DNA from: Candidatus Aenigmatarchaeota archaeon | GTDB taxonomy: Archaea; Aenigmatarchaeota; Aenigmatarchaeia; CG10238-14; SCSR01 | Direction: 5' to 3' | DNA: 39,568 nt | NCBI GenBank assembly: GCA_016177025.1 | Contig: JACOWB010000008.1 | Location: 80,076-119,643, forward strand | Part shown: positions 9,572-37,526 of the stretch, piece after piece | Layout: each line of letters begins with the position of its first letter | Position numbering within the stretch: the first letter of the stretch is position 1 | Notes under the pieces: generated by a model | Databases searched by the model: none | What the model was told of the DNA's origin: nothing | What the model saw: only the letters and a program-made list of their open reading frames with translations | Program-made: the position numbers and the translations under genes

Positions 9572-9574
9572 ATT

Positions 9575-11682: not shown

Positions 11683-11712
11683 TGTTTAAATCTTTACGGT
11701 CCTTAAATAAGG

Positions 11713-11790
11713 GTGAGTGGTATGCTCCAATGGAATGCTCTTCAATAGCTTTTTGCAGATTTTATTTACTTCTATCTCCAAATTACTCTT
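11713..11790 (+). promoter_or_regulatory. trpS leader: micro-ORF with Trp codon (11713/11722..11748) plus conserved downstream motif
   Basis: TTTAAAT at 11685; GTG AGT GGT ATG CTC CAA TGG AAT GCT CTT CAA TAG; then TTATTTACTTCTATCTCCAAATT. Confidence 0.6.
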
Positions 11791-11805
11791 TAGCAGGTGA
11801 ATCTC

Positions 11806-12897
11806 ATGACTAGGATTACTGTTGATGCAGTAGAAGGGGAAGTGGACTATGACAAAGAAATGCAGAAGTTTGGTATTGAGAAAATTGACGCCTATTTGAA
11901 GCAGATGAACAACTTGGATGTTCTTTATCGAAGAGGGATTGTATTTGGCCAGAGGGATTTTATAAGAATATTTGAAGCGATGAAAAACAAAAAACCATTT
12001 GCGGTTCTTACAGGATTTAACCCGTCTGGCCCTTTGCATATAGGAAACCTGATGATTTTGAAAGAGGCCTTGTTCCTGCAGAAGAACGGTGCTGACGTCT
12101 ACTTTGTAATTTCGAACGATGAGACTTATGTTTTCAGGAAGGCTGATACTCTGGAGAAAGCTACGAAAAATGCGTATGATTACGTGATACCTGATATAAT
12201 AGCGCTAGGGTTCGACCCTAAGAAGACTAGGATATTTGTTTCAACAGAGCTTGCTAAACTCTATGAACTGGCAGTAAAGGTTTCAGCCAAAACCACGTTC
12301 TCTGCAATAAAAGCTATTTTCGGCTTTACAAACGAGACAAACCCCGGCCAGATATTTTATTCGATAATGCAGTCTGCGCATATTCTTTTTCCACAGTCAA
12401 AGGAATACGGCGGACCGAGACCGACAGTCGTCAACATAGGGATCGACCAAGATCCTTACATGCGATTGGTGAGAGATATTGCTGATAAATTGGATTTCAT
12501 CAAGCCATCTTCTACTTACCACAAGTTCATGCCAGGACTGCTTGGGGGAAAGATGTCGGGCAGCAAACCGGAAACGTGCATCTATCTTACCGACAGCCAA
12601 GAAATTGCGGAGAAAAAAATAATGAGAGCGTTCTCTGGAGGCGCAAAAACTTTGGAAGAACATAAAAAATACGGAGGCAATCCTGATGCAGATGTCGCAT
12701 GTCAGTACCTTTATTTCATGTTTGAGGAGGATGACAGAAAAATAAAACAGATCTTTAGTGATTTTAGAAATGGTAAACTCGCTTCTGGAGACGTTAAGAA
12801 ATATCTTGCCGATAAAGTTAAGAAATTCCTGGGTGAACATCAGAAAAGAAGAGAGAAAGCGAAGAATCAAATCGAAAAGTTCATGTTAAGGAATTGA
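11806..12897 (+). CDS. trpS: Tryptophan--tRNA ligase
   Basis: TGFNPSGPLHIGN, GIDQDPYMRLVRD, KMSGS; AGGTGA SD before ATG 11806. Confidence 0.96.
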   Translation: MTRITVDAVEGEVDYDKEMQKFGIEKIDAYLKQMNNLDVLYRRGIVFGQRDFIRIFEAMKNKKPFAVLTGFNPSGPLHIGNLMILKEALFLQKNGADVYFVISNDETYVFRKADTLEKATKNAYDYVIPDIIALGFDPKKTRIFVSTELAKLYELAVKVSAKTTFSAIKAIFGFTNETNPGQIFYSIMQSAHILFPQSKEYGGPRPTVVNIGIDQDPYMRLVRDIADKLDFIKPSSTYHKFMPGLLGGKMSGSKPETCIYLTDSQEIAEKKIMRAFSGGAKTLEEHKKYGGNPDADVACQYLYFMFEEDDRKIKQIFSDFRNGKLASGDVKKYLADKVKKFLGEHQKRREKAKNQIEKFMLRN

Positions 12898-12901
12898 TTA
12901 C

Positions 12902-14161
12902 ATGGTTAAAAATTATGAGCTTACTCCTGAAGGTAGGGATTATTTGAAGAACGGTCTTCCTGAAAAACAGCTAGTTGATATTTTGAACAAACAACCAATG
13001 AAATCTCTGCCATTTGACGAAGCTAAGAAAAGCATAAGTAATTTCTACATCGGACTGCAATGGGCATTGAAAAACAAGTGGGCAAAATCGTTTGGGAAAG
13101 ATTTGGTGTTGGCGAAATATCCAGAAAAAATTCCTGAGCAGAAAGCGCTGGAAGAGGTTGATAAAGGTGGCGATGTTGAACAGAAATTAATCGACGTTCT
13201 TCTGCAAAGAAAACTGATTAAAAAGATTGTCACAAGTGAGGCTGACAAACTAGTCGGCAAAGAAGTGACTACTCTGACACCCCAGTTGTTGAAAAGTGGT
13301 TTATGGAAACAGGTCAAATTCCAAAAGTATGATGTGAGCGTTCCTGTATCGAAAGTTTATCCTGGTAAACTGCATCCTTATCGGCAAGTGATAGAAGAAG
13401 TGAAAGAAAAGTTAATCGGACTGGGATTTGTCGAAGCAAAGGGCCCGTTGGTCGAATCTTATTTCTGGAACGATGACGCTTTGTTTATGCCAAGCGACCA
13501 CCCTGCAAGAGGCATACACGATGTTTTCATGGTTAAAGGCGGTCGGCAAGCGAAAGTTTTAGATGAAAATCTCTGGAAGCGGGTCGGAGAAACTCATACA
13601 AATGGTTGGAAAACTGGAAGCAGTGGATGGGGTAATTGGAACTTTGATTTGGCGAGAAAACTAGTTCTTCGCAGCCAGACTACAGCGGTTTCTGCCAGGA
13701 CATTGGTGAAGCTGAAGAAGGAGGATATACCGCACAAGATGTTTGTCATAGACAAGAACTTCAGGCCGGATGTGATTGATGCGAAGCATTTCATTGAATT
13801 CGACCAGTGTGAAGGGATTGTTGCCGGTGAGGGACTTAATTTTAGGCATCTGTTGGGATATCTGAAAGAAATTGCGAACACATTTGGTGCAGAAAAGGTT
13901 AGATTCAAACCATCATACTTCCCATTCACAGAACCATCGGTAGAAGGAGTTGCACTAATCAAAGATATGGGATGGGTTGAATTCGGTGGCGCTGGAATCT
14001 TCAGACCGGAAGTTACTCATCCTCTAGGTGTGGATGTTCCTGTACTCGCATGGGGTCTTGGAATCGGAAGATTAGCAATGATAAAGCTTGGTATCAGTGA
14101 TATACGTTACCTTTACTCCGATAACTTGGATTGGCTGAGAAATAAAGAGGTTGTGAGATAA
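12902..14161 (+). CDS. pheS: Phenylalanine--tRNA ligase alpha subunit
   Basis: FWNDDALFMPSDHPAR, LRSQTTAVS, YFPFTEPS, FGGAGIFRPEV, WGLGIGRLAM. Confidence 0.97.
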   Translation: MVKNYELTPEGRDYLKNGLPEKQLVDILNKQPMKSLPFDEAKKSISNFYIGLQWALKNKWAKSFGKDLVLAKYPEKIPEQKALEEVDKGGDVEQKLIDVLLQRKLIKKIVTSEADKLVGKEVTTLTPQLLKSGLWKQVKFQKYDVSVPVSKVYPGKLHPYRQVIEEVKEKLIGLGFVEAKGPLVESYFWNDDALFMPSDHPARGIHDVFMVKGGRQAKVLDENLWKRVGETHTNGWKTGSSGWGNWNFDLARKLVLRSQTTAVSARTLVKLKKEDIPHKMFVIDKNFRPDVIDAKHFIEFDQCEGIVAGEGLNFRHLLGYLKEIANTFGAEKVRFKPSYFPFTEPSVEGVALIKDMGWVEFGGAGIFRPEVTHPLGVDVPVLAWGLGIGRLAMIKLGISDIRYLYSDNLDWLRNKEVVR

Positions 14162-15795
14162 TGCCCACAATTACTTATGGCAAGAAAGATTTGTTGAATT
14201 TGATTGGAAAGAAACTTTCCGATGAGCAATTGGAAGAAGTAATACATTCGATGAAAACCAATGTCGAAGAGGAAAACGAAAATGAGATAACAATCGAACT
14301 GACGCCCGACAGACCGGACTTGTTCGGAATCGAAGGTTTGGCACGAGCGATAAAACAATATTTAGGATTGCAGACGGGCTTGAAAAAATTTGCAGTCAAC
14401 AGTCCAAAGTTGCATGTTAAAGCTTCGTATCTTCCTTACAGACCTCATCTTGCTGCTGCAGTTGTTAGAAATGTATCGGTGACGGATGCATTTATCAAAA
14501 GTTTGATGAACATACAGGATATTCTGACGGATACTGTCGGAAGGAAGAGGAAGAAGGTTGCGATCGGCATTCATGATTTCGACAAAATCATACCTAACAT
14601 CAATTACATCGAAGTGGATCCGACTGAAAAGATTGTACCGCTTGATACCAATGAGGAGATGACTCTTGCTGAAATTTTGGATAAGATACCTAAAGGAAAA
14701 GACTATGGCCACATTTTGGCTGGACTGAAAAAGTTTCCTGTATGGACTGATGCCAAAGGTATTTTCAGTTTTCCCCCGATAATCAATTCCGACAGAACGA
14801 GGGTAACGGAAAAAACGAAGAATCTTTTAGTTGAACTCACTGGAATCGACAAGGAGACCGTCCTGCAGACTCTGAACATAATAGTGACGAATTTCGCTGA
14901 ACGTGGATGTTCCATCGAAGCTGTGAAGATATTTCATGGCGATAAATCTGAGGTTACTCCCAACCTTAATCCGACTTTCATGGATGTTGGCACTGACGAG
15001 ATAAACAAATTAATTGGACTGGACTTGAAAAAAAGTGATATAATTGATTCGCTGAACAGAATGGGTTACGATGTTACAGAAAACAAAGGTTTGTTAAGAG
15101 TTTTCATCCCTGCTTACAGAACTGATATTCTGCATGGAGTGGATGTTATAGAAGATGTTGCTATAGGATATGGGTTCAATAATTTTGTTCCACAGCTACC
15201 GCATATAGCCACAGTCGGTAAACTGCATCCTGCTGAAAAACTCTCTGCAAAAGTCAGACAGTTGTTAATTGGATATGGCTTCCAAGAAATTATAAATCCT
15301 GTACTATCAAATTCTACAGATCAGTTTGAAAAAATGAATTGGAAAAAAGAAAATGTAATTGAGATAGAAAATCCTGTGTCACAAGAGTATACCTGCTTAA
15401 GAATATGTCTGAAACCTGGTCTACTGAAGATCCTGGGAAAAAATACCCATGTAAGCTATCCGCAGAATATTTTCGAAGTTGGTGATGTCGTCTGGCCGGA
15501 TGAAAATGAGGAAACTATGTCAAAATCCATTAGGAGCATTGCCGGGTTGATGTGCCATTCAAAGACAAGCTTTACCGATGTGAAATCTTTAGTTGATTCG
15601 TTGCTAAAAAATTTGAATATCGGATATAAATTAGAATCTCATGATTTAGAAGAGATGATATCTGGCAGGTCTGCAAAGATTTTAGCGAATGGTAAATACA
15701 TCGGTAATTTTGGGGAAATAAACCCAACTGTCTTGAATAATTGGGGGATAGAAATACCGTGCTCAGCTTTTGAAATCGATTTGGAGGTATTGTGA
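14161..15795 (+). CDS. pheT: Phenylalanine--tRNA ligase beta subunit
   Basis: [42 protein letters not shown]. Confidence 0.97.
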
Positions 15796-15796
15796 G

Positions 15797-16375
15797 ATGG
15801 TTAAAAGAGCGTTCATAATACATGGTTGGGGTGGATCTCCTAAACATGGGTGGGAACCTTGGCTGAAGAATGAATTAGAGAAAAGAGGTCTCGAGGTCTA
15901 TGCACTGTCAATGCCAGATTCCGAACATCCTAAGATGAGTGCTTGGTTGGAAGAATTGAGAAACTCTGTTGTGACCCCTGATAAAGAATGCTATTTTGTT
16001 GGTCATAGTTTAGGATGCATAACAATTTTGCGCTATCTTGAAACTCTTGAAGAGGGTCAAGAAATTGGTGGTGTAGTACTTGTCGCAGGATTTAGCGATA
16101 TCAACATAACTATTGGAGAGGATGAAGATATTAATGAAATCGGAACTTTCTTCGAGACAGACGTCGATTTTGAAAAGGTAAAGAATCATTGTAAGAAATT
16201 TGTTGGCATACACTCTGATGACGATCCTTATGTACCTCTAAGATATGCCGACATCTTTAAAGAGAAATTAGGTGCTGAAATAATCGTGCAAAATAACATG
16301 AAACATTTTAGCGGTGAAGATGGTATAAATCAGTTACCAATTGCATTAGAATCTGTCCTCAAACTATCCAAATAA
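15797..16375 (+). CDS. RBBP9/YdeN-family alpha/beta hydrolase
   Basis: IIHGWGG, GHSLG nucleophile elbow, HSDDDPYVP, catalytic His in KHF. Confidence 0.92.
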   Translation: MVKRAFIIHGWGGSPKHGWEPWLKNELEKRGLEVYALSMPDSEHPKMSAWLEELRNSVVTPDKECYFVGHSLGCITILRYLETLEEGQEIGGVVLVAGFSDINITIGEDEDINEIGTFFETDVDFEKVKNHCKKFVGIHSDDDPYVPLRYADIFKEKLGAEIIVQNNMKHFSGEDGINQLPIALESVLKLSK

Positions 16376-16378
16376 AAT

Positions 16379-17134
16379 TTATCTAAACCGACCAAGTAAT
16401 CTATTCCAAAGGCCTTGGTTGTATCTGAATTCTTTCCCAACCAGATAATGCGCTAATCTCCTCATTTCCACAGATGCAGGTGATGCAGGATTATAATCCA
16501 CGACTGCCGACCTTGCAGCCAGTGACTTTTGAACATTCATATCTTCCGGAATTTTAGCTATCACAGGATACTTGAGGAAATCCTCGATTTCAGCTGCTGA
16601 TAGCTCATCTTTTTTATTCACGCGATTGACAACAGCACCAAGTATAACCTTGTCGAGCTTCTCTGCGACTTTTGCAACCTTCAAGGCGTCCAATACAGAT
16701 GGCAGATTCGGATTTGTCAGCAAGAGTATTTCATCCGCAACTTTGAGCGATAAGGTGGCTTCTTTGCCCAAAGACGGCGCTGAATCTAATAAAATGAAAT
16801 CGGTTTTACCTAGAAGTTTCAAAGTAAAGCTGTGCAATCTATCTGCATCAACGCCAACCAAATCATTTACAGACAAACCCGCCGGCACTACTTTAAAGCC
16901 GTAAGGATGATAATACACAACTTCGTTTGCTTTCGCATCGCCACGCAGAAAATCATGCAGTGATTTTGGAACCATGTGTAATCCCAAGTGCAATCCGAGA
17001 TGAGGTGTGGTTAAATTGGCATCAATCGCAGTCACATCCTTGCCTAATTCGGTCAAAACATGGGACAGGTTTGATACTAGTGTAGTCTTTCCGACACCGC
17101 CTTTGGCGGAAGCTACAGCAATTACGCGCGTCAT
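16379..17134 (-). CDS. minD: MinD/ParA-family ATPase (archaeal MinD)
   Basis: Deviant Walker A SAKGGVGKTT, IDANL, LLDSAP, VVNRV, IPED..V. Confidence 0.9.
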   Translation of the reverse strand: MTRVIAVASAKGGVGKTTLVSNLSHVLTELGKDVTAIDANLTTPHLGLHLGLHMVPKSLHDFLRGDAKANEVVYYHPYGFKVVPAGLSVNDLVGVDADRLHSFTLKLLGKTDFILLDSAPSLGKEATLSLKVADEILLLTNPNLPSVLDALKVAKVAEKLDKVILGAVVNRVNKKDELSAAEIEDFLKYPVIAKIPEDMNVQKSLAARSAVVDYNPASPASVEMRRLAHYLVGKEFRYNQGLWNRLLGRFR

Positions 17135-17170
17135 TTAATCCTAGTTTAATTTCCGTCAGTTTAAAGGTTG

Positions 17171-17303
17171 TGACCCCGGAGGGATTTGAACCCTCGACCT
17201 TTTTAGGTAGCAATGCTATCTCCTAACTCCCAGAGGATAGAAGGTTCAGCCATTCAAGTGAGCTGCTCTTTTTGGTCATCTATCCAAGCTGAGCTACGGG
17301 GCC
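17171..17303 (-). tRNA. tRNA-Arg(UCU) with four predicted introns (17281-17270, 17259-17245, 17237-17225, 17219-17202); CCA not encoded
   Basis: Acceptor GGCCCCG/CGGGGTC-A; T-arm GAGGG-TTCAAAT-CCCTC; removing four BHB-like introns gives a 75-nt cloverleaf with anticodon loop CT-TCT-AA and A20. Confidence 0.85.
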
Positions 17304-17452
17304 TGTAATCTATAATATTTATAAACTTTAAAGTTTTATTGAATTGTAGAAATGACCTTAGTGGTTGTTGATGAGTTCAAGTAAATCGGCCAAAAGTATA
17401 ATGAGAAATGTTTTTTCTAGAACTATTTACCTAGTTTTAAATTCATTTGCAA

Positions 17453-17515
17453 TTCCTCTATTGGCTCTTAAAAATCTAAAGGGGCAATAGGGGAGGATTC
17501 TGCAAAGCGGCAGAG
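17453..17515 (+). other. Two adjacent stem-loops upstream of the orphan ORF pair
   Basis: TCCTCTATTGGCTCTT/AAGGGGCAATAGGGGA stem with G-U pairs; TCTGC-AAAGCG-GCAGA. Confidence 0.5.
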
Positions 17516-17571
17516 GACCCGGGCACAGGAACTCTTTCTAAGGATTTTCATTACAGGAGGAGGTAGTCTAA

Positions 17572-17820
17572 ATGGGTAGCGACTACTCTCATCTCCGGAC
17601 AGTTTCTTATAAAGACGGGCATGGTAGATCTGCTACTGCTGTTCTAGAACTAGGTAAGGATGGATATGCATATTTGAGGGAGAGTGGAAGTCGTCGGCGT
17701 ACAACAGTTCATAAGAGAGAAGTTGTTGACGCTACAGATTCCGAGTTGGTAGACATGCTAAGACTATCATTGGGTCTCCCGTTTCAATTTTATAAAAATG
17801 GTAAATCTCGTAGGAGGTGA
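17572..17820 (+). CDS. Hypothetical basic protein (82 aa)
   Basis: Strong SD GGAGGAGGT 7 nt upstream; no family recognised. Confidence 0.7.
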   Translation: MGSDYSHLRTVSYKDGHGRSATAVLELGKDGYAYLRESGSRRRTTVHKREVVDATDSELVDMLRLSLGLPFQFYKNGKSRRR

Positions 17821-17827
17821 AAATTAA

Positions 17828-18142
17828 ATGGATGTGAACAACTCACGAATAACCAGACCACCGATTTTGCGTAGAAAAGTGATGATAGATGGGAGGAAAA
17901 GACAAGGTGGTATTTACGATGTGAACGGTAATCCTGCCGATCATATAATTCCAGGAAAAATCTACATGGCAAAAATTAATGGCGGGTATGTAAGAGTCCG
18001 CGCACAGCCTAACCAAACAATGCAGATAGCCGGAGGGGAAGAATTGAGAAGTGAAATCGACCCAAGAACAAGTGCGACAGAGGCATATGCTAGATCGGTA
18101 GGATTCAATTTAACTACTGGGGCTTATGAAAACCCTGCATAA
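17828..18142 (+). CDS. Hypothetical protein (104 aa)
   Basis: SD GGAGGTGA upstream; followed by a terminator; no family recognised. Confidence 0.7.
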   Translation: MDVNNSRITRPPILRRKVMIDGRKRQGGIYDVNGNPADHIIPGKIYMAKINGGYVRVRAQPNQTMQIAGGEELRSEIDPRTSATEAYARSVGFNLTTGAYENPA

Positions 18143-18181
18143 AATAGGAGTGAATGCAACTCCTATTGTTTTTCATTTTTT
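18143..18181 (+). terminator. Hairpin plus U-tract terminator
   Basis: AATAGGAGT-GAATGCA-ACTCCTATT followed by GTTTTTCATTTTTT immediately after the stop codon. Confidence 0.7.
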
Positions 18182-18216
18182 GTTAGCTTTTTATTTTGAT
18201 ATTCAAAGTGTTATTA

Positions 18217-28412: not shown

Positions 28413-28838
28413 TCATAAAGCACCTCTCAACTTCTCGGCTATCTTAGACTCTTCATTTTTCAAAATATTCGAATAAGGCGACAAACTTTTACCAACTATC
28501 TGCAAGAAAGTAAAGTCCCCTTTATATCGGGGAATTACATGAACATGCAGATGATCAACACTCTGTCCAGCTATTCTTCCGTAATTAGTGCCTATATCTA
28601 ATCCGGCCGGTTTCAGAACTTTGTGAACCGTTTTTGCGATTTTTTTCACGAGTTCAAACAATTTGTCAGTTTCCTTGTCAGTGAGCGCCAACACAGATTT
28701 TACATGCCGTTTGGGAATAATCAGAGTGTGCCCCAGAGTAACAGGCTGACTAGAGAAGAATGCCAAATTATTGATATCTTCGTAAATTATTTCGTGCTTC
28801 TTCAGATTGTTTTTGTTGCAGAAAGGGCATTTTTTCAT
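28413..28838 (-). CDS. HIT-family nucleotide hydrolase
   Basis: CPFC, GHTLIIPKRH, AGQSVDHLHVHVIPR. Confidence 0.95.
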   Translation of the reverse strand: MKKCPFCNKNNLKKHEIIYEDINNLAFFSSQPVTLGHTLIIPKRHVKSVLALTDKETDKLFELVKKIAKTVHKVLKPAGLDIGTNYGRIAGQSVDHLHVHVIPRYKGDFTFLQIVGKSLSPYSNILKNEESKIAEKLRGAL

Positions 28839-28848
28839 ATTCTCTCAA

Positions 28849-30636
28849 TTATTCTATTATCGCTTTTATTCTCCTTATACCTGCAGCGATACCTTCTTCC
28901 TTGACAATTTTAAATTTACCAACCTCTTTTGTATTTCTCACATGCGGCCCACCGCATACTTCGATAGAGAAATCGCCGATGGAATAGACAGAAACTTTTT
29001 CCTCATATTTCTGCTCAAACATTGCTTGCGCTCCCCTTCCTTTTGCTTCCTTGAATGTCATTTCTTCCCTGACTACCAAAAGACCTTTCTTAATTTGCTC
29101 GTTGACAAGCTCCTCTATCTTTCTTACCTCGTCCTCGGTTAATTTTCTGTCAAGATTAAAATCAAAACGCAGTCTTTCCGGTGTTATATTAGATCCTTTC
29201 TGCACAACGTCCCTTCTTTTCAAAACCTTGCGTATAGCCTCGTTCAACAGATGCGTTGCTGTGTGGAGTTTTGTCGATTGTTCTGATGCGTCACTCAACC
29301 CGCCTTTAAACTTTTTTTCAGCTCCGACTCTGGAAATCTGTTGATGCTTTTCAAATTCTTTCTGGAATCCCTCTTCATCAATTTCTGTATTCATCTCTTT
29401 CCCGAGTTCTTTTGTCATCTCTATCGGGAAACCGAAGCTTTGGAACAGTAGAAATGCATTCTTACCATCAATCCTCTTGACTTGCCTAGCAATTTCTTCA
29501 AATTTCTTCAAGCCCCGCTCAAGGGTATTCCTGAATTTCGCTTCTTCGTTCTTCAATTCTGTCAGAATGAACTCTTTATTTTTTTCCAACTGTGGATAAT
29601 CTTTCTTGTAGATATCTATCACTAACTTTACCAAGTCACTAAGAAATTCCCTTTCTATCCCAATCAGTTTCCCGTGTCTTACGGCTCTTCTTATCAATCT
29701 CCGCAGAATATACCCTCTATCGACATTACTGGGAGTAATTTCTTCTGATAGAACAAATGTAGAAGCCCTTATATGGTCCGCTATAATTCGTATAGATTTT
29801 TCTTGTTTTTCATCAGGTGATTTTATTTTTGCAATTTCCTTTATCTTCTGAACAATCGGCTGGAAAGTTTCTATCTCGTAGACACTTTTCTTATTCTGCA
29901 ATGCTGCGACAGTCCTTTCAACTCCCATCCCTGTGTCGACGTTTTTTTGTTTCAGCATCTCATACTTGCCTTCAGCGGTTTTATTGTATTGCATAAACAC
30001 ATCATTCCATATTTCAAAATATTTTCCGCATGAATCGCCTGGCTTGCAGTCTTTGCCATGTGGCTTCTTGCCAGCATCATAGAACATTTCTGTGTCAGAA
30101 CCGCATGGACCGGTAGCACCGGCAGGACCCCACCAGTTGTCTTTCTTCGGGAAATAGAAGATTCTTTCCTTAGGTACTCCTAAACTCTGCCAGATTCTGG
30201 CGCTCTCTTCATCTCTCGGTGCATCCTTATCGCCAGCAAAAACAGATATGTACAGTTTTCTTTTATCGATGCCGAGCCACTTCTTGTCTGTCAAAAACTC
30301 CCAACTCCATTTGATTGCATCCTCCTTCCAATAATCTCCCAGCGACCAGTTTCCCAGCATCTCGAAAAATGTCAAGTGAGAATTGTCGCCGACTTCGTCT
30401 ATATCATCTGTGCGCAGGCACTTCTGAACATTTGTCAATTTCTTTCCGCGTGGGTGGGGCTGGCCTAGGATATACCTTACAAGCGGGTGCATGCCAGCCG
30501 TTGTGAAAAGAACTGTAGGATCTTCCTCAGGAATAAGTGGAGCATTAGGAATAACCGCGTGGTTCTTCTGTTTGAAAAATTCTATGTAAAGTTCTTTCAA
30601 TTTTTTTGAATCTATGCTTTTATTCATAATATTCAT
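28849..30636 (-). CDS. alaS: Alanine--tRNA ligase, short form without C-Ala domain
   Basis: LFTTAGM, HLTFFEMLGN, VDTGMGVER, ADHIRA, editing motifs HTATH and CGGPH; ends at GIRRIKA. Confidence 0.96.
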   Translation of the reverse strand: MNIMNKSIDSKKLKELYIEFFKQKNHAVIPNAPLIPEEDPTVLFTTAGMHPLVRYILGQPHPRGKKLTNVQKCLRTDDIDEVGDNSHLTFFEMLGNWSLGDYWKEDAIKWSWEFLTDKKWLGIDKRKLYISVFAGDKDAPRDEESARIWQSLGVPKERIFYFPKKDNWWGPAGATGPCGSDTEMFYDAGKKPHGKDCKPGDSCGKYFEIWNDVFMQYNKTAEGKYEMLKQKNVDTGMGVERTVAALQNKKSVYEIETFQPIVQKIKEIAKIKSPDEKQEKSIRIIADHIRASTFVLSEEITPSNVDRGYILRRLIRRAVRHGKLIGIEREFLSDLVKLVIDIYKKDYPQLEKNKEFILTELKNEEAKFRNTLERGLKKFEEIARQVKRIDGKNAFLLFQSFGFPIEMTKELGKEMNTEIDEEGFQKEFEKHQQISRVGAEKKFKGGLSDASEQSTKLHTATHLLNEAIRKVLKRRDVVQKGSNITPERLRFDFNLDRKLTEDEVRKIEELVNEQIKKGLLVVREEMTFKEAKGRGAQAMFEQKYEEKVSVYSIGDFSIEVCGGPHVRNTKEVGKFKIVKEEGIAAGIRRIKAIIE

Positions 30637-31881
30637 TTAGATGTTTAGTAAAGTTAAAATTAATGGGTTAAATCCTAGGAAAAAACTGATACTAGGCAAT
30701 AACAATATTCCCATGCAGTTGCTTCGTCTAACTCCTACATATGTGCACAACAAACCTATTCCAGTCGCTGTTATTCCTATCAATAAACCATAAATGCCAG
30801 TCATAACTGTTATCATAAGAACCAGAAAACTTAGTACAGATAATGACAGGATGGTATAGTTAATCTTGACCAAAAAACGCGGTATCGTCCTGCCTAAATA
30901 GAGAGTTATAGGCACAACAATCCCAGCTGCAAAAAATATCACACCTAGGAAAAGTAGGACATCATAAAAACTTATTTCAGGCAATATTCTTTCTATAGCA
31001 ACAGACGCACCTGAGCGTGGATTGTCAATCAAATAAAGGGAGTTAAGCGATACGACCTCGTTAGCGGTATTGATACCCGAAAGCGTGACAAGAAATGTTC
31101 TTGCTTCGCCTAAACCACCGATATACTGCATGAAAGTAGCTGCTTGAGATACTCCAACAGCTGGCAACAGCCCTACCAAAACACCTGCGATGACACCGAG
31201 AACTATCGCCTTGGATATGTTTACTTTGGAGGTTTTCAATTCCGTATCTATCTGTTGCTTTGGTATTTTCGAATTTTCTGCTATTGAAGTTATTAATATG
31301 CTTATTGCAAATAAACCTGCAAATGTGGGAAATAGTGCATTCTGTTGCGGAACTATTGAAGAGTTGAGAACTAGCATACCTAAAATACCCGAGAGGACTA
31401 CAATCAAAGTTGCGAACAGTATTTTCTTAATATGCTTCTCTGAAAGAACCATGAAAAATACTACGGCTAAAAGTGGGTATGCTATGTAAGGCCGTATAAT
31501 GTTGTAAAGTAAAGCAAAATAATTGCCGAAAAATAAAATGAAGATTATACTTATTATTAGCGAGATAAATCCTCCAATAACTGTTAGTCGGATCGCTTCG
31601 TATCCTCTGCCTTCTAGCAGAAGCCTGTGTCCAGGTAAAATTGACAACGCGTTGCTATCACCATCAGGACTACCAAGAAATATAGAGGGAATAAAACTAG
31701 TGAAAACTTGTGCTATTGCAGTTGATACTATCAAAACAGTTAGATAGTGTGGATTTGGAATTAGAAACACGAGTGATGCAAATAAAGGTAAAATGTTATT
31801 TAGATGTAGCCCTGGTAATAATCCTAGAATAACACCTAGAACAATTCCAAACAAACTAAACAAGAAAATTTCTAAAAGCAT
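30637..31881 (-). CDS. TctA-like/DUF112 membrane protein
   Basis: GLLPGLH.N, FIPSIFLG.P, LPGHRLLLEGRG.EA, RSG; about 12 TM. Confidence 0.88.
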   Translation of the reverse strand: MLLEIFLFSLFGIVLGVILGLLPGLHLNNILPLFASLVFLIPNPHYLTVLIVSTAIAQVFTSFIPSIFLGSPDGDSNALSILPGHRLLLEGRGYEAIRLTVIGGFISLIISIIFILFFGNYFALLYNIIRPYIAYPLLAVVFFMVLSEKHIKKILFATLIVVLSGILGMLVLNSSIVPQQNALFPTFAGLFAISILITSIAENSKIPKQQIDTELKTSKVNISKAIVLGVIAGVLVGLLPAVGVSQAATFMQYIGGLGEARTFLVTLSGINTANEVVSLNSLYLIDNPRSGASVAIERILPEISFYDVLLFLGVIFFAAGIVVPITLYLGRTIPRFLVKINYTILSLSVLSFLVLMITVMTGIYGLLIGITATGIGLLCTYVGVRRSNCMGILLLPSISFFLGFNPLILTLLNI

Positions 31882-31884
31882 TTA

Positions 31885-32283
31885 TCACCCTAAAATTTTT
31901 ACATCGTCTAAACTTTTCGGCATAATTTGCAATCTGCCTTTATAGTTTTCTATAACTCCTTTGACAGAAATTTTGTCGTTTAATTGAAAATCCTCTTCTG
32001 TAATGCCTATCTCATTCAAACTTTTCATATAGTCTGAAAACAACGGAACTTGTATTTTTGTTTTGCTATCGGAGATTGTAAGAAATAAGTGACCGTCCTC
32101 ATGTTTTCTTTTCTCTACTAAATAGCCTGTAGTAACTATTCTCCTACCCTCCAAGTCTGCAGTAATATCACTAATTTCTATCTTTTGAGGTTCTATGTTT
32201 ACAGAAGCGAAATAAATTAAGATTAATCCGACTATAGAAGTGAACAAGCTAAGAATCAATAAAAAATTCTTAGATAATACCAT
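31885..32283 (-). CDS. Membrane-anchored OB-fold protein
   Basis: N-terminal TM, HLFLTISD...I.V..F, ISVKG.IENYKGRLQI. Confidence 0.8.
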   Translation of the reverse strand: MVLSKNFLLILSLFTSIVGLILIYFASVNIEPQKIEISDITADLEGRRIVTTGYLVEKRKHEDGHLFLTISDSKTKIQVPLFSDYMKSLNEIGITEEDFQLNDKISVKGVIENYKGRLQIMPKSLDDVKILG

Positions 32284-32287
32284 CCTA

Positions 32288-35284
32288 TCAGACTCTATCA
32301 AAGCTTATTTCTATAATCTTGTTGTCAAAGGTTAATTTGCCTTTGTATTTTCCTTTCGCTTCCCCTACGGATATTTTTATTGCGCCAACTTCTTTCTTTA
32401 TTGCGTCTAAATATCCAGCTAATGTTTGTTCAGTAGATTTGTCGGATTTGACAAAGAGTGAGATTGTTTCCTTGACATTAAATTTATTTTGTTTCCTCAT
32501 ATTCTGAACTTCTCTGGTCAGTTCCTTGATGAGTGCCTCTTCTAGCAGAGGCTTGTCTAATGTCTTATTCACGTAAACTTTACCGTGTTTAAATTGAACT
32601 TCAGAAAATTCATCATCCAATGCTTCTTTTGTAACGCCGACGGATTTGGCATTGCAGATGAACAACAGAATACTATCAAGTTTGTCGATGGTTTTTACAA
32701 CATTCGTATCATCGGTTTGAACGAGTACTTCGGAGATAGGCCATCTTAGTTTTATTCCAGCCAATTGTCTTGCGGCTAGGCTTGCCTCAATTATTTCTTT
32801 TGCTATTTCCATTTGGCTTTCGAGATTTTCGTCAATAAATGCTTTTTGAGCTTTAGGCCAATCTATCATGAATACTGATTTATGGCCACCATCTAGATTT
32901 TGATAGATTTCCTCTGACAAGAAAGGTGTAATTGGTGACAATAATTTCGCCACGGTCAACAATGTTTCGTATAAAACTGATAATGCAGATGACTTGTCAG
33001 AACCGGTTTCAGTGACCCATACTCTATCACGGACGAGTTTGATATAGAATCTGCTCAAGTCATCGACGACGAAGTTCACGATTTTTCTTCCTGCATCATG
33101 AAACTCAAAATTTTCTAAATGTTCTGTTACATTTTGTATTAGGGAATTAAGTTTTGATAAAAGCCATTTGTCTTCAATCTTCAAATTTTTCAGTGATGGT
33201 TTGAAATCTTTTGTTATGTATGTTGTGAAGAATGAATAGGAATTCCATAAAATATTCAATGCTTTTCTTATTTCATCGGCTGTTTTGAAGCTGAAGTTTT
33301 GGACTTCCCATGGTGGAACTTCCCAACAATAATAGAGACGGAGTATATCGGAACCTAATTTTTCCAATGCATCTGTTGCCCATACAACATTACCTAGGGA
33401 CTTGCTCATTTTTTCGCCCTTTTCGTCTGTAACCCACCCGTTCAATGCGACTGCTTTGTATGGAGAAGAGTTGAAAGCGGCCATACCGCAGAACATCAGC
33501 GAATAAAACCATCCGCGAATTTGGTCCTGGCTTTCGTCTATCAAATCAACAGGCCATAATTTTTCAAACAGTTCTTTATTTTGATAAGGATATCCCAAGG
33601 AAGCCCATGGTGCAATTCCAGAATCGAACCAAACATTCATAGTATCCGGAACGCGATTCATCACACTCTTACAATTACGGCATTTTATTCCAATCTTGTC
33701 TACTACATGTTTGTGAAGGTCTATATCTTTTGGTAATCTGTTTATCGAACGCTTTTGCAGCTCTTCTAAACTGCCGATAACATCATAGTCGCCACATTTG
33801 TCGCATATCCAGACAGGCAAAGGAATACCCCAGTATCTCTGCTGGGATATACACCAGTCCACAGCATCCTCGAGCCAGTTGTGAAATCTTTCCTTTCCGA
33901 AATCTGGAAACCACCTAACCTTTTGGTTTTCCTTTATCATTTTTCCTTTTATCTTATCGACTTTGAAGAACCATTGTTTGCTTACCCGGAATACCAATGA
34001 GGATTTGCATCTCCAACATAAGGGATAAGAATGGACAACCCAACCGAAATGCAATAGAAGATTTTTTTTTCCCAATTTTTCTGCTATCATCTTGTCGGCG
34101 TCTTTGACAAAAATTCCTTTGAATTCCCCTGCATCTTCTGTGTATCTTCCCTGTTCGTCCAAAGGTGAAACTATCGGTAAATTGTAATTCAATCCCATGA
34201 GATGATCTTCCGGACCGTGCCCAGGCGCTGTATGAACTGCTCCTGAACCTTCTTCCATAGTCACAAATTCTTTTGCTGCTCCCTCTTTTGTTTCCTTGCC
34301 TTCAACTAGCCTGTGCTTGTAGGATTTTTTCGTCAATACAGGAATCGACAGGATTATTCTGCGTGCATTTGAATTGTTTTCCAGATTTTTTTGAACCGGC
34401 ACATCAAAAAGAGGTTTGTATTTTATTCCTTCCAGTTCTTTACCTAAAATCTTTTCAACAATCTCGTATTTCAAGTTCAATAATTCTTTTAACACAACTT
34501 CCGCACGTTTTTCAGCTATTATCAAAACTTCGTTGCCAACTTTTACTCTCAAATAATATTCATCTGGATGAACAGCGATTGCGACATTCGAGATTAGTGT
34601 CCATGGTGTAGTTGTCCACACTACTATGTATTCGTTATCTTTTCCGACAACCGGAAACTTGACATAAATAGAAGGGTCTTTAACATCGGCATAGCTGTCG
34701 CTCACCTCATATCCTGACAGTGCTGTTTCACAATGCGGACACCAGTAAATTGATTTTTCACCTGTTACAAGCATACCTTTTTCAAACAGCTGCTTAACAG
34801 TCCACCAGCCAGATTCGATGTAGTAATTTTTGAATGTTATGTACGGTTCTATATATCCACGCCACGCGCCTAATTGCCTGTACAGTTCCAACCATTTTTC
34901 TTCATTGCCCGTTGCAAATTTCCTGCAAGCTTCGATGAATTTTCCTACACCCATCATTTCGATGTCTTGCTTGGATTTTATACCGAGATTTTTCTCTACC
35001 ATGTTCTCTATCGGTAATCCGTGCATGTCAAAGCCTGGCTGGAACCACGAGCTAAATCCCTGCAGAAGCTTGAACTTGCTCCAGATATCCTTCAATGCGG
35101 TTGTCTTGACATGACCGACATGCGCATCGGCATTTGCATAAGGCGGTCCGTCCAATAGATAGAATTTTTTCTTTTTAGCATCAAACTTTGACAACTTTTG
35201 CGGTATTTTGCTTGACTCCCAGTACTCTCTGATTCTGTGTTCAAGTTCCCTTGGATTATATTGCCCTTTAACTTCTTTCACCAT
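32288..35284 (-). CDS. ileS: Isoleucine--tRNA ligase
   Basis: LDGPPYAN..HVGH, GFDMHGLPIE, WTTTPWTL, DQIRGWFYS, KMSKSLGN. Confidence 0.97.
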   Translation of the reverse strand: MVKEVKGQYNPRELEHRIREYWESSKIPQKLSKFDAKKKKFYLLDGPPYANADAHVGHVKTTALKDIWSKFKLLQGFSSWFQPGFDMHGLPIENMVEKNLGIKSKQDIEMMGVGKFIEACRKFATGNEEKWLELYRQLGAWRGYIEPYITFKNYYIESGWWTVKQLFEKGMLVTGEKSIYWCPHCETALSGYEVSDSYADVKDPSIYVKFPVVGKDNEYIVVWTTTPWTLISNVAIAVHPDEYYLRVKVGNEVLIIAEKRAEVVLKELLNLKYEIVEKILGKELEGIKYKPLFDVPVQKNLENNSNARRIILSIPVLTKKSYKHRLVEGKETKEGAAKEFVTMEEGSGAVHTAPGHGPEDHLMGLNYNLPIVSPLDEQGRYTEDAGEFKGIFVKDADKMIAEKLGKKNLLLHFGWVVHSYPLCWRCKSSLVFRVSKQWFFKVDKIKGKMIKENQKVRWFPDFGKERFHNWLEDAVDWCISQQRYWGIPLPVWICDKCGDYDVIGSLEELQKRSINRLPKDIDLHKHVVDKIGIKCRNCKSVMNRVPDTMNVWFDSGIAPWASLGYPYQNKELFEKLWPVDLIDESQDQIRGWFYSLMFCGMAAFNSSPYKAVALNGWVTDEKGEKMSKSLGNVVWATDALEKLGSDILRLYYCWEVPPWEVQNFSFKTADEIRKALNILWNSYSFFTTYITKDFKPSLKNLKIEDKWLLSKLNSLIQNVTEHLENFEFHDAGRKIVNFVVDDLSRFYIKLVRDRVWVTETGSDKSSALSVLYETLLTVAKLLSPITPFLSEEIYQNLDGGHKSVFMIDWPKAQKAFIDENLESQMEIAKEIIEASLAARQLAGIKLRWPISEVLVQTDDTNVVKTIDKLDSILLFICNAKSVGVTKEALDDEFSEVQFKHGKVYVNKTLDKPLLEEALIKELTREVQNMRKQNKFNVKETISLFVKSDKSTEQTLAGYLDAIKKEVGAIKISVGEAKGKYKGKLTFDNKIIEISFDRV

Positions 35285-35299
35285 CTCATCACAAGCCCG

Positions 35300-35359
35300 A
35301 TTTTTAGAATTAGGAGTAGCAAGGTAAATAACTTACGCAGCAATCCGTAAACCACTCAT
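35300..35359 (-). promoter_or_regulatory. ileS leader: micro-ORF with Ile codon (35359..35333) plus conserved downstream motif
   Basis: TTTATAAA at 35389-35382; ATG AGT GGT TTA CGG ATT GCT GCG TAA; then GTTATTTACCTTGCTACTCCTAATTCTAAAAAT. Confidence 0.6.
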
Positions 35360-35428
35360 GTGGTGCTTTTATAAAGCAAGGTTTATAAAGATTCAGTAGA
35401 AATAAATGGAAAATATAGAGATGATGCT

Positions 35429-35881
35429 ATTTCAGAATGCAACTGTTGCGGTAAAGAATTTCCAAGATTGAGTCCTGCTAAGATAGAAGGCGCTGTTATT
35501 GACGTTTGCGAGAGATGCTCCAAGTTCGGCACTAAGGTTAGCGGACCTCAACTTGCTTACACGCCAATCAAAAAAACTATTAAGATTTCTGAACTTGCTA
35601 ATTTGGACCTGATTCTAATACCAGAATATGGAAGGTTGATTTCCAAAGTAAGGGAGAGTAAAGGGTTGACACGTTACGATTTCGCAAAAAGAATTAATGA
35701 GAAAGAATCTGTTGTAAAACGGTTGGAAGATCAAGAATTCGAGCCTAATGAAGAAATGGTAAAAAGGATTGAAGATTCTCTTGATATCAGACTGAGAGAA
35801 AGATATGAAGGTGTTGTTTTACGACAGAGTGAAAAGAAAAGAGTTGATTTAACTGCCGGCGACATAGTAGAGGCATCTTAA
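35429..35881 (+). CDS. mbf1: Archaeal multiprotein bridging factor 1 (Zn ribbon + HTH); start codon uncertain
   Basis: In-frame SECNCCGKE upstream of the tracked ORF, IEGA.IDVCERCSKFG, HTH (RESKGLT...A..INEKES), LTAGD. Confidence 0.9.
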   Translation: MSECNCCGKEFPRLSPAKIEGAVIDVCERCSKFGTKVSGPQLAYTPIKKTIKISELANLDLILIPEYGRLISKVRESKGLTRYDFAKRINEKESVVKRLEDQEFEPNEEMVKRIEDSLDIRLRERYEGVVLRQSEKKRVDLTAGDIVEAS

Positions 35882-36147
35882 TGAAGAAAACTAGAAAGAT
35901 TGGGGATGTGTTTGGATTCTGGAAGTTTCTAATCGTGCTGTCTATCATGCTGAATGTCGTGAATTTTTATTTTATAAGTGGATTGTATACTGGCATTAAT
36001 TCAAATGACTCTAATGTGCCTTTATCAAGTACAGCTGGTGGAGGCATGACTGGCTATTTTGTTCTTGGCTCTTCATCATTTATTTCACTGATACTTCTAA
36101 TTGCTGTTGTAAGTGCGTATTTGGTTTTTAGAAAGCGAACAGTTTAA
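35881..36147 (+). CDS. Small two-TM hypothetical protein
   Basis: Two hydrophobic helices flanking a polar linker; coupled to the mbf1 stop. Confidence 0.65.
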   Translation: MKKTRKIGDVFGFWKFLIVLSIMLNVVNFYFISGLYTGINSNDSNVPLSSTAGGGMTGYFVLGSSSFISLILLIAVVSAYLVFRKRTV

Positions 36148-36202
36148 TGGTTGAGAGAAACGAGAATAGCCTATTTAAACCTAAAAACTACTGTAAGGTA
36201 TT

Positions 36203-36272
36203 GTGATTAAAGTGAACGGCGGTTTACTTCACATCGAGTGAACGTGATTTAACTAGTCCTATTTCTAAAAAT
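36203..36272 (+). promoter_or_regulatory. hisS leader: micro-ORF with His codon (36203..36241) plus conserved downstream motif
   Basis: TTTAAA at 36174; GTG ATT AAA GTG AAC GGC GGT TTA CTT CAC ATC GAG TGA; then GTGATTTAACTAGTCCTATTTCTAAAAAT. Confidence 0.6.
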
Positions 36273-36290
36273 AAAGCAAAGATATCTAAT

Positions 36291-37526
36291 ATGAAACTCC
36301 AACCTCCAAAAGGCACAAGAGACCTGTTACCTGAAGGTGCAAGCAAGTTGCAGAAGATAATAGATGTTTGTAGGGGTGTTTTTGAGAAATACGGGTTTGG
36401 ACCTTTAGTCACCCCTGCATTCGAAAGCTTTGACTTATTGTCGGCAAAAGGTGGTTTGGGGGAGGCTGTCAAAGATGAGATATATTATTTCAAGGACAAG
36501 TCTGATCGGGAATTGGGATTGAGGTTTGATTTGACCATGCCTTTGGCAAGGGTTGTTTCTTCCACATCATTGCCAAAACCGTTCAAGAGATATCAAATAG
36601 AAAAAGTGTGGAGATATGACAATCCGGCCAATCTAAGATGGCGCGAGTTCTTCCAATCGGATATAGACATAGTCGGAAGCACATCATTGCTATCGGATGT
36701 GGAATGTTTAACTGCGGTTTGCGAGATTCTGGAAAAACTAGGGTTCAAAGACTATTATATAAGAGTCAATAACAGAAAACTGCTTCAAAAAGAATTTGAA
36801 AAATTTGTTGAAAGGGACAAATTAATCGAAGTTTTCAGAACCATTGATAAGCTGGATAAAATAGGTCTAGAAGGTGTAGAATCTGAACTCAGAGCTAAAA
36901 ATATAGAACCCGAGAAAATCTTAGTGGTTCTTAAAATTAAAAGCATCGAAAGTCTACCTGACAATGAAGGGAAAAAAGAATTAGAAGAGCTTTTTGGTTT
37001 GGCAAGAAAATTCGGAATTGCTAAAAGAGTTAAATTTGATATTTCATTGGTACGCGGTCTAGAGTATTACACGTCTGTAGTTTTCGAGGTTAATCTTGGC
37101 GCAAAAGTTAGCTGTGGAGGGGGCGGAAGGTATGATGACCTCATTGAAACTGTCGGTGGCCAAGACTTGCCTGCAACTGGGATTTCATTGGGATTGGATA
37201 GAATTCTGGAAGTTATGAAAGAAAATAAGATGTTCGAAACCGAGAAAAGCAATACGAAAGTTTTTGTTGCAAATGTAGACAACTCAACAATCAAAGATGT
37301 CATACTGATTGCACAGGAACTTAGGAAAAACAATATAAACACACAAATGGATTTAATGGAAAGGAACTTTGGTAAGCAATTGGAATATGCAAGTAATGCA
37401 CAGATTCCTTATGTTCTAATAATAGGCAGAGAAGAACTAAAAAAGAAAAAGTTTAAATTAAAGGATATGAAAACAGGTAAACAGAGGGAGTTAGCGTTAA
37501 AGAAGATTATTTCTTTATTAAAATAA
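36291..37526 (+). CDS. hisS: Histidine--tRNA ligase
   Basis: PKGTRD, LRFDLT.PLAR, REFFQ.DID, LVRGLEYYT, GGGRYD. Confidence 0.97.
   Translation: MKLQPPKGTRDLLPEGASKLQKIIDVCRGVFEKYGFGPLVTPAFESFDLLSAKGGLGEAVKDEIYYFKDKSDRELGLRFDLTMPLARVVSSTSLPKPFKRYQIEKVWRYDNPANLRWREFFQSDIDIVGSTSLLSDVECLTAVCEILEKLGFKDYYIRVNNRKLLQKEFEKFVERDKLIEVFRTIDKLDKIGLEGVESELRAKNIEPEKILVVLKIKSIESLPDNEGKKELEELFGLARKFGIAKRVKFDISLVRGLEYYTSVVFEVNLGAKVSCGGGGRYDDLIETVGGQDLPATGISLGLDRILEVMKENKMFETEKSNTKVFVANVDNSTIKDVILIAQELRKNNINTQMDLMERNFGKQLEYASNAQIPYVLIIGREELKKKKFKLKDMKTGKQRELALKKIISLLK

Follow-up and report, generated by a model that had tools for sequence, protein, structure and literature searches.

Background

Bacteria match aminoacyl-tRNA synthetase levels to demand by means of T-boxes, leader peptides and operator mimics, and how archaea do so is to our knowledge largely unknown. 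Here we analyze a 39,568-nt stretch of a Candidatus Aenigmatarchaeota genome (assembly GCA_016177025.1, contig JACOWB010000008.1, positions 80,076 to 119,643 of the forward strand), referred to below as the window and numbered from its first base, in which the synthetase genes trpS, ileS and hisS are each preceded by a micro open reading frame (micro-ORF, or leader) with a codon for the amino acid of the synthetase downstream. The original prediction, made from the sequence of the window, was that these leaders sense charged tRNA and that a ribosome stalled at the cognate codon masks a termination or cleavage site or alters initiation downstream. The leaders belong to a conserved, synthetase-specific family with a cognate sensor codon, and the best current explanation, to which we assign a probability of roughly 0.55, is that a hungry sensor codon would cause a programmed frameshift giving negative feedback.

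In bacterial prfB, where release factor 2 (RF2) is made through a +1 frameshift, a short ORF with an early stop contains a slippery CUU and, upstream of it, an element resembling a Shine-Dalgarno (SD) sequence. The leaders described here would share with prfB the early in-frame stop, a slippery codon in the peptidyl (P) site (CUU in prfB and in hisS here) before a slow codon in the aminoacyl (A) site, an SD-like element a few nucleotides 5', and a product that relieves the slow step and so gives negative feedback. They differ in that the sensor is a sense codon awaiting aminoacyl-tRNA, whereas in prfB it is a stop codon awaiting release factor, and in that the shifted frame of ileS, valS and trpS ends at the start codon without encoding protein, with fusion to the gene only in hisS (7/7); moreover, they are archaeal, concern several amino acids and are known here from sequence alone. 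Bacterial leader peptides (trpL, hisL and pheM, the last preceding pheST) likewise consist of a short ORF with cognate codons before an amino-acid or synthetase operon, in which the ribosome senses charged tRNA; those leaders have runs of codons and hairpins, whereas here there is one codon, a leaderless geometry, an archaeal host and probably a change of frame as the read-out. The T-box is a large structured RNA that acts in cis ahead of synthetase genes, binds tRNA with no ribosome involved and responds to its charging; it resembles the present leaders in having a single codon (the specifier) for the cognate tRNA.

Regulatory frameshifting, including RF2 and its SD-like stimulator, is treated in excerpts of PMC5009743, where CUU_AGG_C is rated 43% shifty and where a ketolide-induced frameshift in the ermC leader, running into the intergenic spacer, switches on the downstream gene. 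The ermC system is similar in that a frameshift in a leader ORF extends translation into a spacer, and different in that the shift is triggered by a drug and unfolds mRNA structure that hides the start; the leaders described here would respond to an empty A site, have no predicted structure and have a shifted frame that stops at the start codon. The +1 shifts of the yeast elements Ty1 and Ty3 likewise involve a P-site CUU or special codon next to a hungry sense codon; there a rare tRNA fixes the Gag:Gag-Pol ratio, whereas here the hungry codon would be the cognate of the regulated synthetase, which would make the system a homeostat. Leaderless poly-Cys short ORFs at operon 5' ends in mycobacteria, termed the 'ribulon' in bioRxiv 10.1101/834739, also sense the supply of one amino acid; they differ in having Cys runs, in acting through stalling that opens a duplex hiding the ribosome-binding site, in being bacterial and in preceding metabolic genes and not synthetase genes. 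Synthetases are mentioned only for Sec and Pyl in the excerpted parts of a review of archaeal recoding (PMC8211752), and an extract of the GeneTack table (1106 prokaryotic genomes larger than 1 Mb, 77 of them archaeal) classes a '+1 tRNA synthetase' cluster as phase variation. Searches of full-text literature turned up neither a synthetase leader in archaea nor a synthetase under frameshift control.

Synthetase leaders and their conservation

The genome holding the window comprises 571 kb in 23 contigs with 41% G+C; its nearest named records are metagenome-assembled genomes labelled Candidatus Aenigmatarchaeota or Micrarchaeota (DPANN archaea), and the window DNA is present in groundwater metagenome runs (DNA runs). 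Genes were called by a simple script, giving 641 genes from calls that are crude. TATA-like words are concentrated 40-26 nt 5' of start codons, an SD-like word precedes 127 of 626 genes, and a TATA matrix trained on 246 upstream regions of the same genome (core TTTAWA) places the usual start of the core at -31 to -29 from the start codon; the promoter architecture of the genome is thus mostly leaderless. Scores of at least 7 bits on this matrix occur at 0.095% of genome positions. The distal TATA boxes ahead of trpS, ileS, hisS and a fourth gene, valS, score 8.9, 8.5, 7.4 and 8.4 bits, approximately the top quarter of the genome's promoters, and lie 28-37 nt 5' of the leader start, which is the genome-typical leaderless distance. 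All three micro-ORFs of the original prediction, with their TATA boxes and cognate codons, were found, and the claimed TATA-to-start spacing of 28-30 nt was measured as 28 (trpS), 30 (ileS) and 29 nt (hisS). For conservation, trpS, ileS and hisS were fetched from 40 related genomes; loci and genomes are denoted below by L and G numbers, G000 being the genome of the window.

The ileS leader lies on the minus strand (35333..35359) and reads ATG AGT GGT TTA CGG ATT GCT GCG TAA (MSGLRIAA and stop), with the putative P-site CGG at 35347-45, the Ile sensor ATT at 35344-42 and the TAA stop at 35335-33. Its start, ATG 35359, is 30 nt from the palindromic TATA box TTTATAAA (35382..35389, minus strand), which is kept in 9 leaders of the genus; downstream of the stop are the spacer motif TTATTTACCTTGCTACTCCTAATTCTAAAAAT (35300..35331) and ileS itself (32288..35284, both minus strand; Pfam PF00133, 1.3e-115). 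The pattern ATG-(S/C)-(G/D)-(L/S)-CGG-ATH-x-x-stop is present at 9 of the 10 genus ileS loci with upstream sequence, and the one locus without a leader sits directly behind another gene. Within the genus the leader has undergone TTA>CTA, GCT>GCG, GCG>GCA and ATT>ATC changes and one in-frame codon deletion. Outside it CGG-ATH is the sole invariant part (e.g. MKGEYRIVA, MDRRIEL, MGGRRI, VKGDARIFA), kept in all 9 leaders of the genus as well as in 14 distant leaders. No Arg codon of the genome is rarer than CGG (1.69 per 1000); the ARAGORN search, which returned 16 tRNAs and no tRNA-Arg, is uninformative on which tRNA reads it. A wider ileS scan with one genome per species covered 78 loci with enough upstream sequence and gave 7 matches, six in further DPANN-like records (L240 repeating L079) and the seventh a 25-codon ORF in a Hadarchaeota record that looks spurious.

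The hisS leader, GTG ATT AAA GTG AAC GGC GGT TTA CTT CAC ATC GAG TGA (36203..36241, plus strand), begins 29 nt 3' of the TATA box TTTAAA (36174..36179, plus strand) at GTG 36203 and contains an SD-like GGCGGT (36218-23), the putative P-site CTT (36227-29), the His sensor CAC (36230-32) and the TGA stop (36239-41). A spacer motif with core TCCTATTTCTAAAAAT (36257..36272), which is also TATA-like at the usual -32 position (6.5 bits), separates it from hisS (36291..37526, both plus strand; Pfam PF13393, 7.9e-40). Its peptide V[IV]KV[NK]G[GD][LI]LH is kept at 6 of 10 genus hisS loci, with CAC replaced by CAT in one, and at the remaining 4 hisS abuts an upstream gene. The GGCGGU-UUA-CUU-CAC of this leader parallels the layout of prfB. 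The register that the ileS and hisS leaders had been said to share, GGT TTA Cnn-cognate-n-n-stop, is exact.

The trpS leader, (GTG AGT GGT) ATG CTC CAA TGG AAT GCT CTT CAA TAG (11713..11748, plus strand), starts at GTG 11713 or at ATG 11722, respectively 28 and 37 nt 3' of the TATA box (P1, 11685..11692, plus strand; TTTAAAT at 11685-11691), and carries its Trp sensor codon at 11731-11733 and its TAG stop at 11746-11748. It is followed on the same strand by the U/C-rich spacer motif TTTTATTTACTTCTATCTCCAAAT (11760..11783) and by an SD sequence, AGGTGA (11795-11800), with trpS (11795..12897 including the SD; Pfam PF00579, 7.5e-42), the first gene of trpS-pheS-pheT; the trpS start was corrected to ATG 11806, behind AGGTGA. 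The arrangement M-x-Q-W, 3-5 codons and a stop is kept at 6 of 8 genus loci examined, where the identity of the stop (TAG, TAA or TGA) varies and its position is near-constant, and two of the conserved leaders precede divergent TrpRS genes of only 35-49% identity. Upstream of trpS in G020 (L060) is a short ORF with two Trp codons, which resembles a broken copy of a TrpRS N-terminus and not a leader.

The fourth leader precedes valS on another contig of the same genome, outside the window (C17, ~10729-10850, minus strand; loci L099/L164). It reads ATG TCT GGT GAA CTA CGG GTA CTG GGA TAA (MSGELRVLG and stop), with the Val codon after CGG, starts 36 nt 3' of its TATA box, has the motif GATTTTATTTACTTCTATTCCTAAAT after the stop and is kept at 5 of 9 genus loci, with GTA>GTC changes. 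In G002 (L170), valS retains the TATA box and spacer motif without a micro-ORF and looks like a leader whose sensor was lost. A conserved inverted repeat, ..gcccctacc..ggggtagggtaa or ..ggcaaggtaaa, is located beside valS in L165, L166, L167, L170, L171, L174 and L188; it may be a small structured RNA and has no Rfam match.

The similarity claimed for the spacer motifs holds: the 20-mers CTACTCCTAATTCTAAAAAT (ileS) and CTAGTCCTATTTCTAAAAAT (hisS) are identical at 18/20 positions, and the TCC core precedes the synthetase ATG by 29 nt in trpS, 31 nt in ileS and 34 nt in hisS, within the 29-34 nt given for it. In scans of the whole genome the 16-nt motif core was found only at hisS and ileS (up to 1 mismatch), the trpS 24-mer only at the trpS and valS leaders (up to 5 mismatches) and the 32-mer of ileS only at ileS; none of these sites precedes an unrelated gene. 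As the motif is confined to four leaders in 571 kb, it is no general promoter element. Scored as a TATA box the proximal motif reaches 5.7 bits in trpS, 6.5 in hisS, 5.7 in valS and less than 4.5 in ileS, and the caveat that it might be a second promoter stays for hisS only, given its position at -32.

Cognate-codon specificity

The expectation that a spurious leader would lose its cognate codon in orthologous genes was not borne out, as the codon is kept in the genus leaders of ileS (9/9), trpS (6/6) and hisS (6/6), and the sensor changes are synonymous (ATT/ATC/ATA, CAC/CAT, GTA/GTC). This conservation in relatives is decisive support for the leaders being real; by composition only, the chance of four such peptides each holding the cognate residue is about 0.003. 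The Ser codon of the leader is AGT in ileS and TCT in valS.

Each dicodon was counted in frame, in ORFs of up to 20 codons within 200 nt upstream of the four genes. CGG-ATH was found at 17/28 ileS loci vs. none for valS (0/27), trpS (0/30) and hisS (0/28; 0/85 combined), CGG-GTN at 5/27 valS loci vs. 0/28, 0/30 and 1/28 in the other sets, CAA-TGG at 5/30 trpS loci vs. 0 in the other three sets, and CTT-CAY at 7/28 hisS loci (one doubtful) vs. 2/27 for valS, 0/28 for ileS and 0/30 for trpS. In some cases a common scaffold appears with the sensor swapped, such as MSGMFQ-W (trpS) vs. MSDMFQ-V (valS, G029) and MGECR-I-LG (ileS) vs. MGECF-P-LG (proS).

Stop-free shifted frames and candidate shift sites

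The frame of the leader is closed 0-6 codons past the sensor. One shifted frame from the sensor codon, however, is stop-free over the whole spacer, and in the genus leaders of ileS, valS and trpS its first stop is on or beside the synthetase start. For ileS (9/9 genus leaders, +1 frame) this stop falls at -10 to +5 of the ATG, as ATGA, TAATG or ATGGTGA; for valS (5/5, +1, the frame being open in L180 too) at -2 to +8; and for trpS (6/6, -1 or +2) at -8 to +5. In the window, the +1 frame of ileS runs without stops from the Ile codon to TGA 35280-35278 (35278..35343, minus strand), which overlaps ileS codons 2-3 (ATGGTGA). Ahead of trpS the -1 (+2) frame has no stop between the sensor codon and TAG 11811-11813, which lies five nt inside trpS (11730..11813, plus strand), and the +1 frame of this one leader is likewise open, to TGA 11798-11800 inside the SD. 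In hisS (6/6 plus L027) no stop intervenes because the +1 frame is the hisS frame itself, which in the window holds 25 open codons 5' of the ATG with no ATG, GTG or TTG among them (36216..36290, plus strand). In the six genus hisS leaders the sensor-to-ATG distance (61, 58, 58, 55, 64 and 64 nt) is 1 mod 3 without exception, and none of them has a stop in this frame (6/6 open); this upstream frame has 23-26 open codons without a start codon of its own, yet its indels are 3n, and the hisS leader of another genus (L027) is likewise fused in frame. In total, 23/23 ileS, 6/6 valS and 7/7 hisS leaders have a +1 frame that reaches the start without a stop.

The 14 distant ileS leaders have unrelated spacers of 36-127 nt, with start codons assigned by alignment. 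The +1 frame is open to between -13 and +14 of the start in all 14, where shuffles give an expectation of 4.32 (product of probabilities 7.4e-9), while the control +2 frame is open in 3/14 vs. 4.21 expected. The third base of the Ile codon varies among T, C and A, changes that are synonymous in frame 0 and radical in +1, and therefore it is frame 0 that selection maintains as far as the sensor. This, with +1 kept open after the sensor, is the signature that a programmed frame change would be expected to leave.

The codon before the sensor follows a simple grammar. Sensors for His, Pro and Leu, which begin with C, come after NUU and those for Ile and Val after CGG, both with an open +1 frame; Trp, Phe, one Val and one Thr sensor come after CAA, with an open -1 frame. 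Examples of the first class are CUU-CAC in hisS, GUU-CAC in L027 and L024, and CUU-CCA in proS of L476. CAA is preceded by C in 10/10 leaders (trpS, pheS, valS and thrS of G029), the other two bases of that preceding codon being variable, so that the candidate -1 shift site of trpS in the window is C-CAA-UGG (11727..11733, plus strand). In a frame-blind count over 11 synthetase gene sets (327 loci located, 314 past filters), the predicted frame reached the start at 38/39 slippery sites followed by the cognate codon and at 5/46 of those followed by another codon (Fisher 1.6e-17); when each gene and genus contributed a single site, the counts were 20/21 vs. 5/46 (1.7e-11).

An SD-like element often accompanies these sites. 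With GGATCACCTCCT as the 16S 3' end, the 9 nt 5' of the P codon hold SD-like stretches of at least 4 nt in 11/14 distant ileS leaders vs. 21.5% of control codons (p 8.6e-6), and valS has GGTGA or GGTG at a spacing of 4-5 in 5/5. The GUGGU of the genus ileS leaders and the GGCGGU of hisS are SD-like only with wobble or mismatch. Among all leaders 18/40 have at least 4 nt and 10/40 at least 5 nt, the latter vs. 4.4% of control codons.

Stop-codon read-through was considered because in 4 of 7 tabulated genus leaders the ileS leader and ileS are in one frame with a single stop between them; it was rejected as a rule, since the remaining ileS, trpS and valS leaders have either 2-4 stops or a different frame. 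Whether the peptide of the shifted frame is conserved was set aside as evidence, this being inseparable from DNA conservation.

Leaders at further synthetase genes

Candidate leaders of the same kind precede proS (GTT CCA in L467, TTT CCA in L473, CTT CCA in L476), pheS (CTC CAA TTT in L424, TGC CAA TTT in L438, both ending in ATGA overlaps), thrS (TGC CAA ACA in L347) and leuS (GTT CTA in L303); the leuS leader of L282 is doubtful, and no other was found among the leuS loci scanned. In five genomes of the genus no leader was seen for leuS, metS, thrS, serS, proS, glyS, aspS, tyrS, gluS or argS, and in approximately 28-30 relatives each nothing convincing was found before metS, argS and tyrS (cysS, lysS and asnS were outside the scan). 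The alaS, pheS and pheT genes of the genome of the window are inside operons.

A tRNA-Pro(UGG) gene is located between the Pro-sensor leader and proS in two loci (L473:1410-1484, plus strand; L476:2263-2337, minus strand), and the +1 frame stays open across it in both. The thrS match of G000 (contig C2, ~8492-9701; loci L123 and L345) contains an internal TGA and TAA, possibly a broken gene or an assembly error.

RNA structure

The 39.6-kb window and four valS loci gave no match at the gathering score of any Rfam family, the T-box model included. RNAfold z-scores of the four leaders against shuffled sequences (+1.12, +0.76, -0.03 and +1.00) indicate no unusual stability, RNAalifold consensus structures of the ileS and hisS leaders amount to -3.0 and -4.2 kcal/mol with almost no covariation, and a 13-bp ileS hairpin of G000 is disrupted in L064, L066 and L067. 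As there is neither a conserved RNA structure nor an Rfam family, classical hairpin attenuation is unsupported. A leader-peptide attenuator of the trpL/hisL/pheM type lacks support in that each leader has a single cognate codon and no terminator or antiterminator hairpins, and a T-box riboswitch in that there is no structure and no match to the T-box covariance model.

Proposed mechanism and alternative explanations

It is very likely, judging from the conserved cognate codon and the leaderless geometry, that the leader is translated as a sensor of charged tRNA, and to that extent the original prediction stands; its second part, in which stalling masks a site, is unsupported, no conserved RNA structure having been found. 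Transcript start, leader translation, frameshift, reinitiation and the sign of regulation are steps that we infer. The consensus TATA box would set the transcript start at, or a few bases 5' of, the leader start codon. With plentiful cognate aminoacyl-tRNA, 7-13 codons would be read and translation would terminate 34-57 nt before the synthetase start, leaving the U/C-rich unstructured spacer untranslated. With scarce aminoacyl-tRNA the lone sensor codon would stand empty in the A site, and the peptidyl-tRNA on the slippery codon (CGG before Ile and Val; NUU before His, Pro and Leu; C-CAA before Trp and Phe) may shift by +1, or by -1 at C-CAA; an SD-like GGUGA is often found 3-5 nt 5' of the slip codon. 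The shifted frame, kept stop-free, would then carry the ribosome up to the synthetase start, where in ileS, valS and trpS a stop overlapping or abutting the start (ATGA, TAATG, TAGATG, GGTGA) may permit reinitiation, and where in hisS the shifted ribosome would pass directly into the synthetase frame. Extended translation may also shield the spacer RNA from termination or cleavage. The outcome would be a negative feedback of the prfB kind, in which a hungry sense codon does the sensing.

Several observations weigh against this frameshift explanation. Each leader has one sensor codon, a caveat of the original prediction that holds throughout; SD-like sequences at trpS, valS and ileS could allow independent initiation; a TATA-like site of median strength at -32 could yield a leaderless hisS mRNA; and many ileS leaders have a +1-frame GTG just past the ATG (ATGAGTG), which makes a separately initiated overlapping ORF possible. 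Re-pairing after the slip would be imperfect (CGG>GGA/GGG, CAA>CCA), and neither CGG nor C-CAA is a canonical shift codon. The frame-blind test is partly circular, the three slippery classes having been defined after seeing the data with the non-cognate control as safeguard; L019 fails among the 39 cognate sites, and the related genomes are not independent. The proS, pheS and thrS leaders count as no test because the scan required an open frame, nor does that of L303, which was picked out during an inspection of the frames by eye. Finally, a tRNA-Pro gene between leader and proS suggests a transcriptional or RNA-level read-out and is a poor fit to translational coupling.

One alternative, which we regard as unlikely, retains the stall: a ribosome held at the cognate codon would shield the RNA from termination or cleavage by FttA/aCPSF1 or at intrinsic oligo-U, or would alter initiation, without any change of frame. 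Conservation and cognate specificity fit it equally well, the spacer is U/C-rich and unstructured, oligo-T directly follows the stop in trpS (TAG-CTTTTTGCAGATTTTATTT) and valS (TAA-GATTTTATTT), and the interposed tRNA-Pro of L473 and L476 demands control at the RNA level. However, a stalled ribosome lags behind the polymerase, which should leave the spacer RNA exposed and not shielded, the T-tracts are weak in ileS and hisS, and stalling gives no reason for the stop-free shifted frame (14/14 vs. 4.3 expected; 38/39 vs. 5/46), for the 3n spacing in hisS and trpS or for the invariant CGG and the C before CAA. What may survive of the originally proposed read-out is the U/C-rich untranslated spacer as the vulnerable part. 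A distinctly unlikely alternative dispenses with the frameshift by assuming two overlapping or relayed upstream ORFs, of which the second starts in the shifted frame and is translationally coupled to the synthetase gene, with the short ORF competing with it or feeding it. Sequences read by eye do show shifted-frame starts close to the 5' end in the majority of ileS and valS leaders, an ATG occurs inside the CCAATGG of trpS, and ATGA/TGATG overlaps join both ORFs in L185 (valS) and L424 (pheS), where the second ORF would begin at an ATG or TTG that overlaps the stop of the first. Against this, the hisS leaders (6/6 plus L027) have no ATG, GTG or TTG in the open frame, in L210 a +1 stop precedes the Ile codon and the first start comes only past that codon, and a GTG 4 nt from the 5' end of a leaderless mRNA is an unlikely entry site; moreover, the invariant cognate codon would be unexplained, or the feedback positive rather than negative.

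Two further alternatives do without translated sensors. The motif could be a DNA-level element, either a proximal promoter or the operator of a common transcription factor, in keeping with its TATA scores in trpS, hisS and valS (5.7, 6.5 and 5.7 bits, hisS at the usual -32) and with the valS of G002, which keeps the motif without a micro-ORF. We consider this very improbable, as the ileS motif has no TATA-like score of at least 4.5 bits, a promoter at -41/-42 in trpS and valS would cut off their SD, and the conservation of start, stop and cognate codon with synonymous changes, together with the frame statistics, would be unexplained. Least credible is an operator that mimics an anticodon arm and is bound by its own synthetase, as in E. 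coli thrS. Anticodon triplets do occur in the ileS, trpS and hisS leaders, adjacent to the codon or close by (GAU in CGGAUU, CCA in CCAAUGG, GUG in AAAGUGAA), but they are not displayed by any conserved hairpin, where they sit relative to the codon varies among leaders, a U33-like base is not conserved in trpS, and the valS leaders with GTC (L167, L172) keep the Val codon without a Val anticodon triplet.

Beyond the four genes, the frameshift explanation might extend to a modular DPANN family of charged-tRNA gauges, a proposal for which we see even odds: a single hungry codon would cause a +1 or -1 shift over a stop-free spacer to the synthetase, with the sensor swapped for at least 8 amino acids (Ile, Val, Trp, His, Pro, Phe, Thr, Leu) and placed in some lineages ahead of a tRNA gene. 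If the frameshift explanation holds, ribosome-based sensing of charged tRNA exists in Archaea and works without any RNA structure, and hungry-codon frameshifting, usually deemed an error, has been put to use in regulation. The family would represent the first cis-acting tRNA-charging sensor in Archaea and the first frameshift homeostat driven by sense-codon starvation, of a portable design in which one codon swap changes the amino acid sensed. The sequence rules of the leaders help to find more cases and matter for DPANN annotation, e.g. of a HisRS that would be N-terminally extended via frameshift.

Gene neighbourhood in the window

Seven synthetase genes are packed in 26 kb (11806-37526), namely trpS-pheS-pheT followed by leuS, alaS, ileS and hisS, and Pfam confirmed trpS, pheS, pheT, a leuS-like gene, alaS, ileS and hisS. 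The first three form a single operon (4-nt and overlapping junctions), so that in this genome the two PheRS subunits would come under the control of the trpS leader as well. Between an ORF at 17828-18142 and leuS is a GC-containing hairpin, AATAGGAGT..ACTCCTATT, with T runs (~18143-18190), which has the look of a bacterial-style terminator, and a genus-conserved GTGTTATTAATG lies 5' of the leuS start. The ileS leader shares a divergent region of 183 nt (35285-35467) with an ORF at 35468-35881 that has a Cys-rich N-terminus; this region contains two of the palindromic TTTATAAA boxes, which could serve both directions. The gene directly 3' of hisS (37535-39355) encodes a protein that combines PIN, P-loop ATPase and KH domains.

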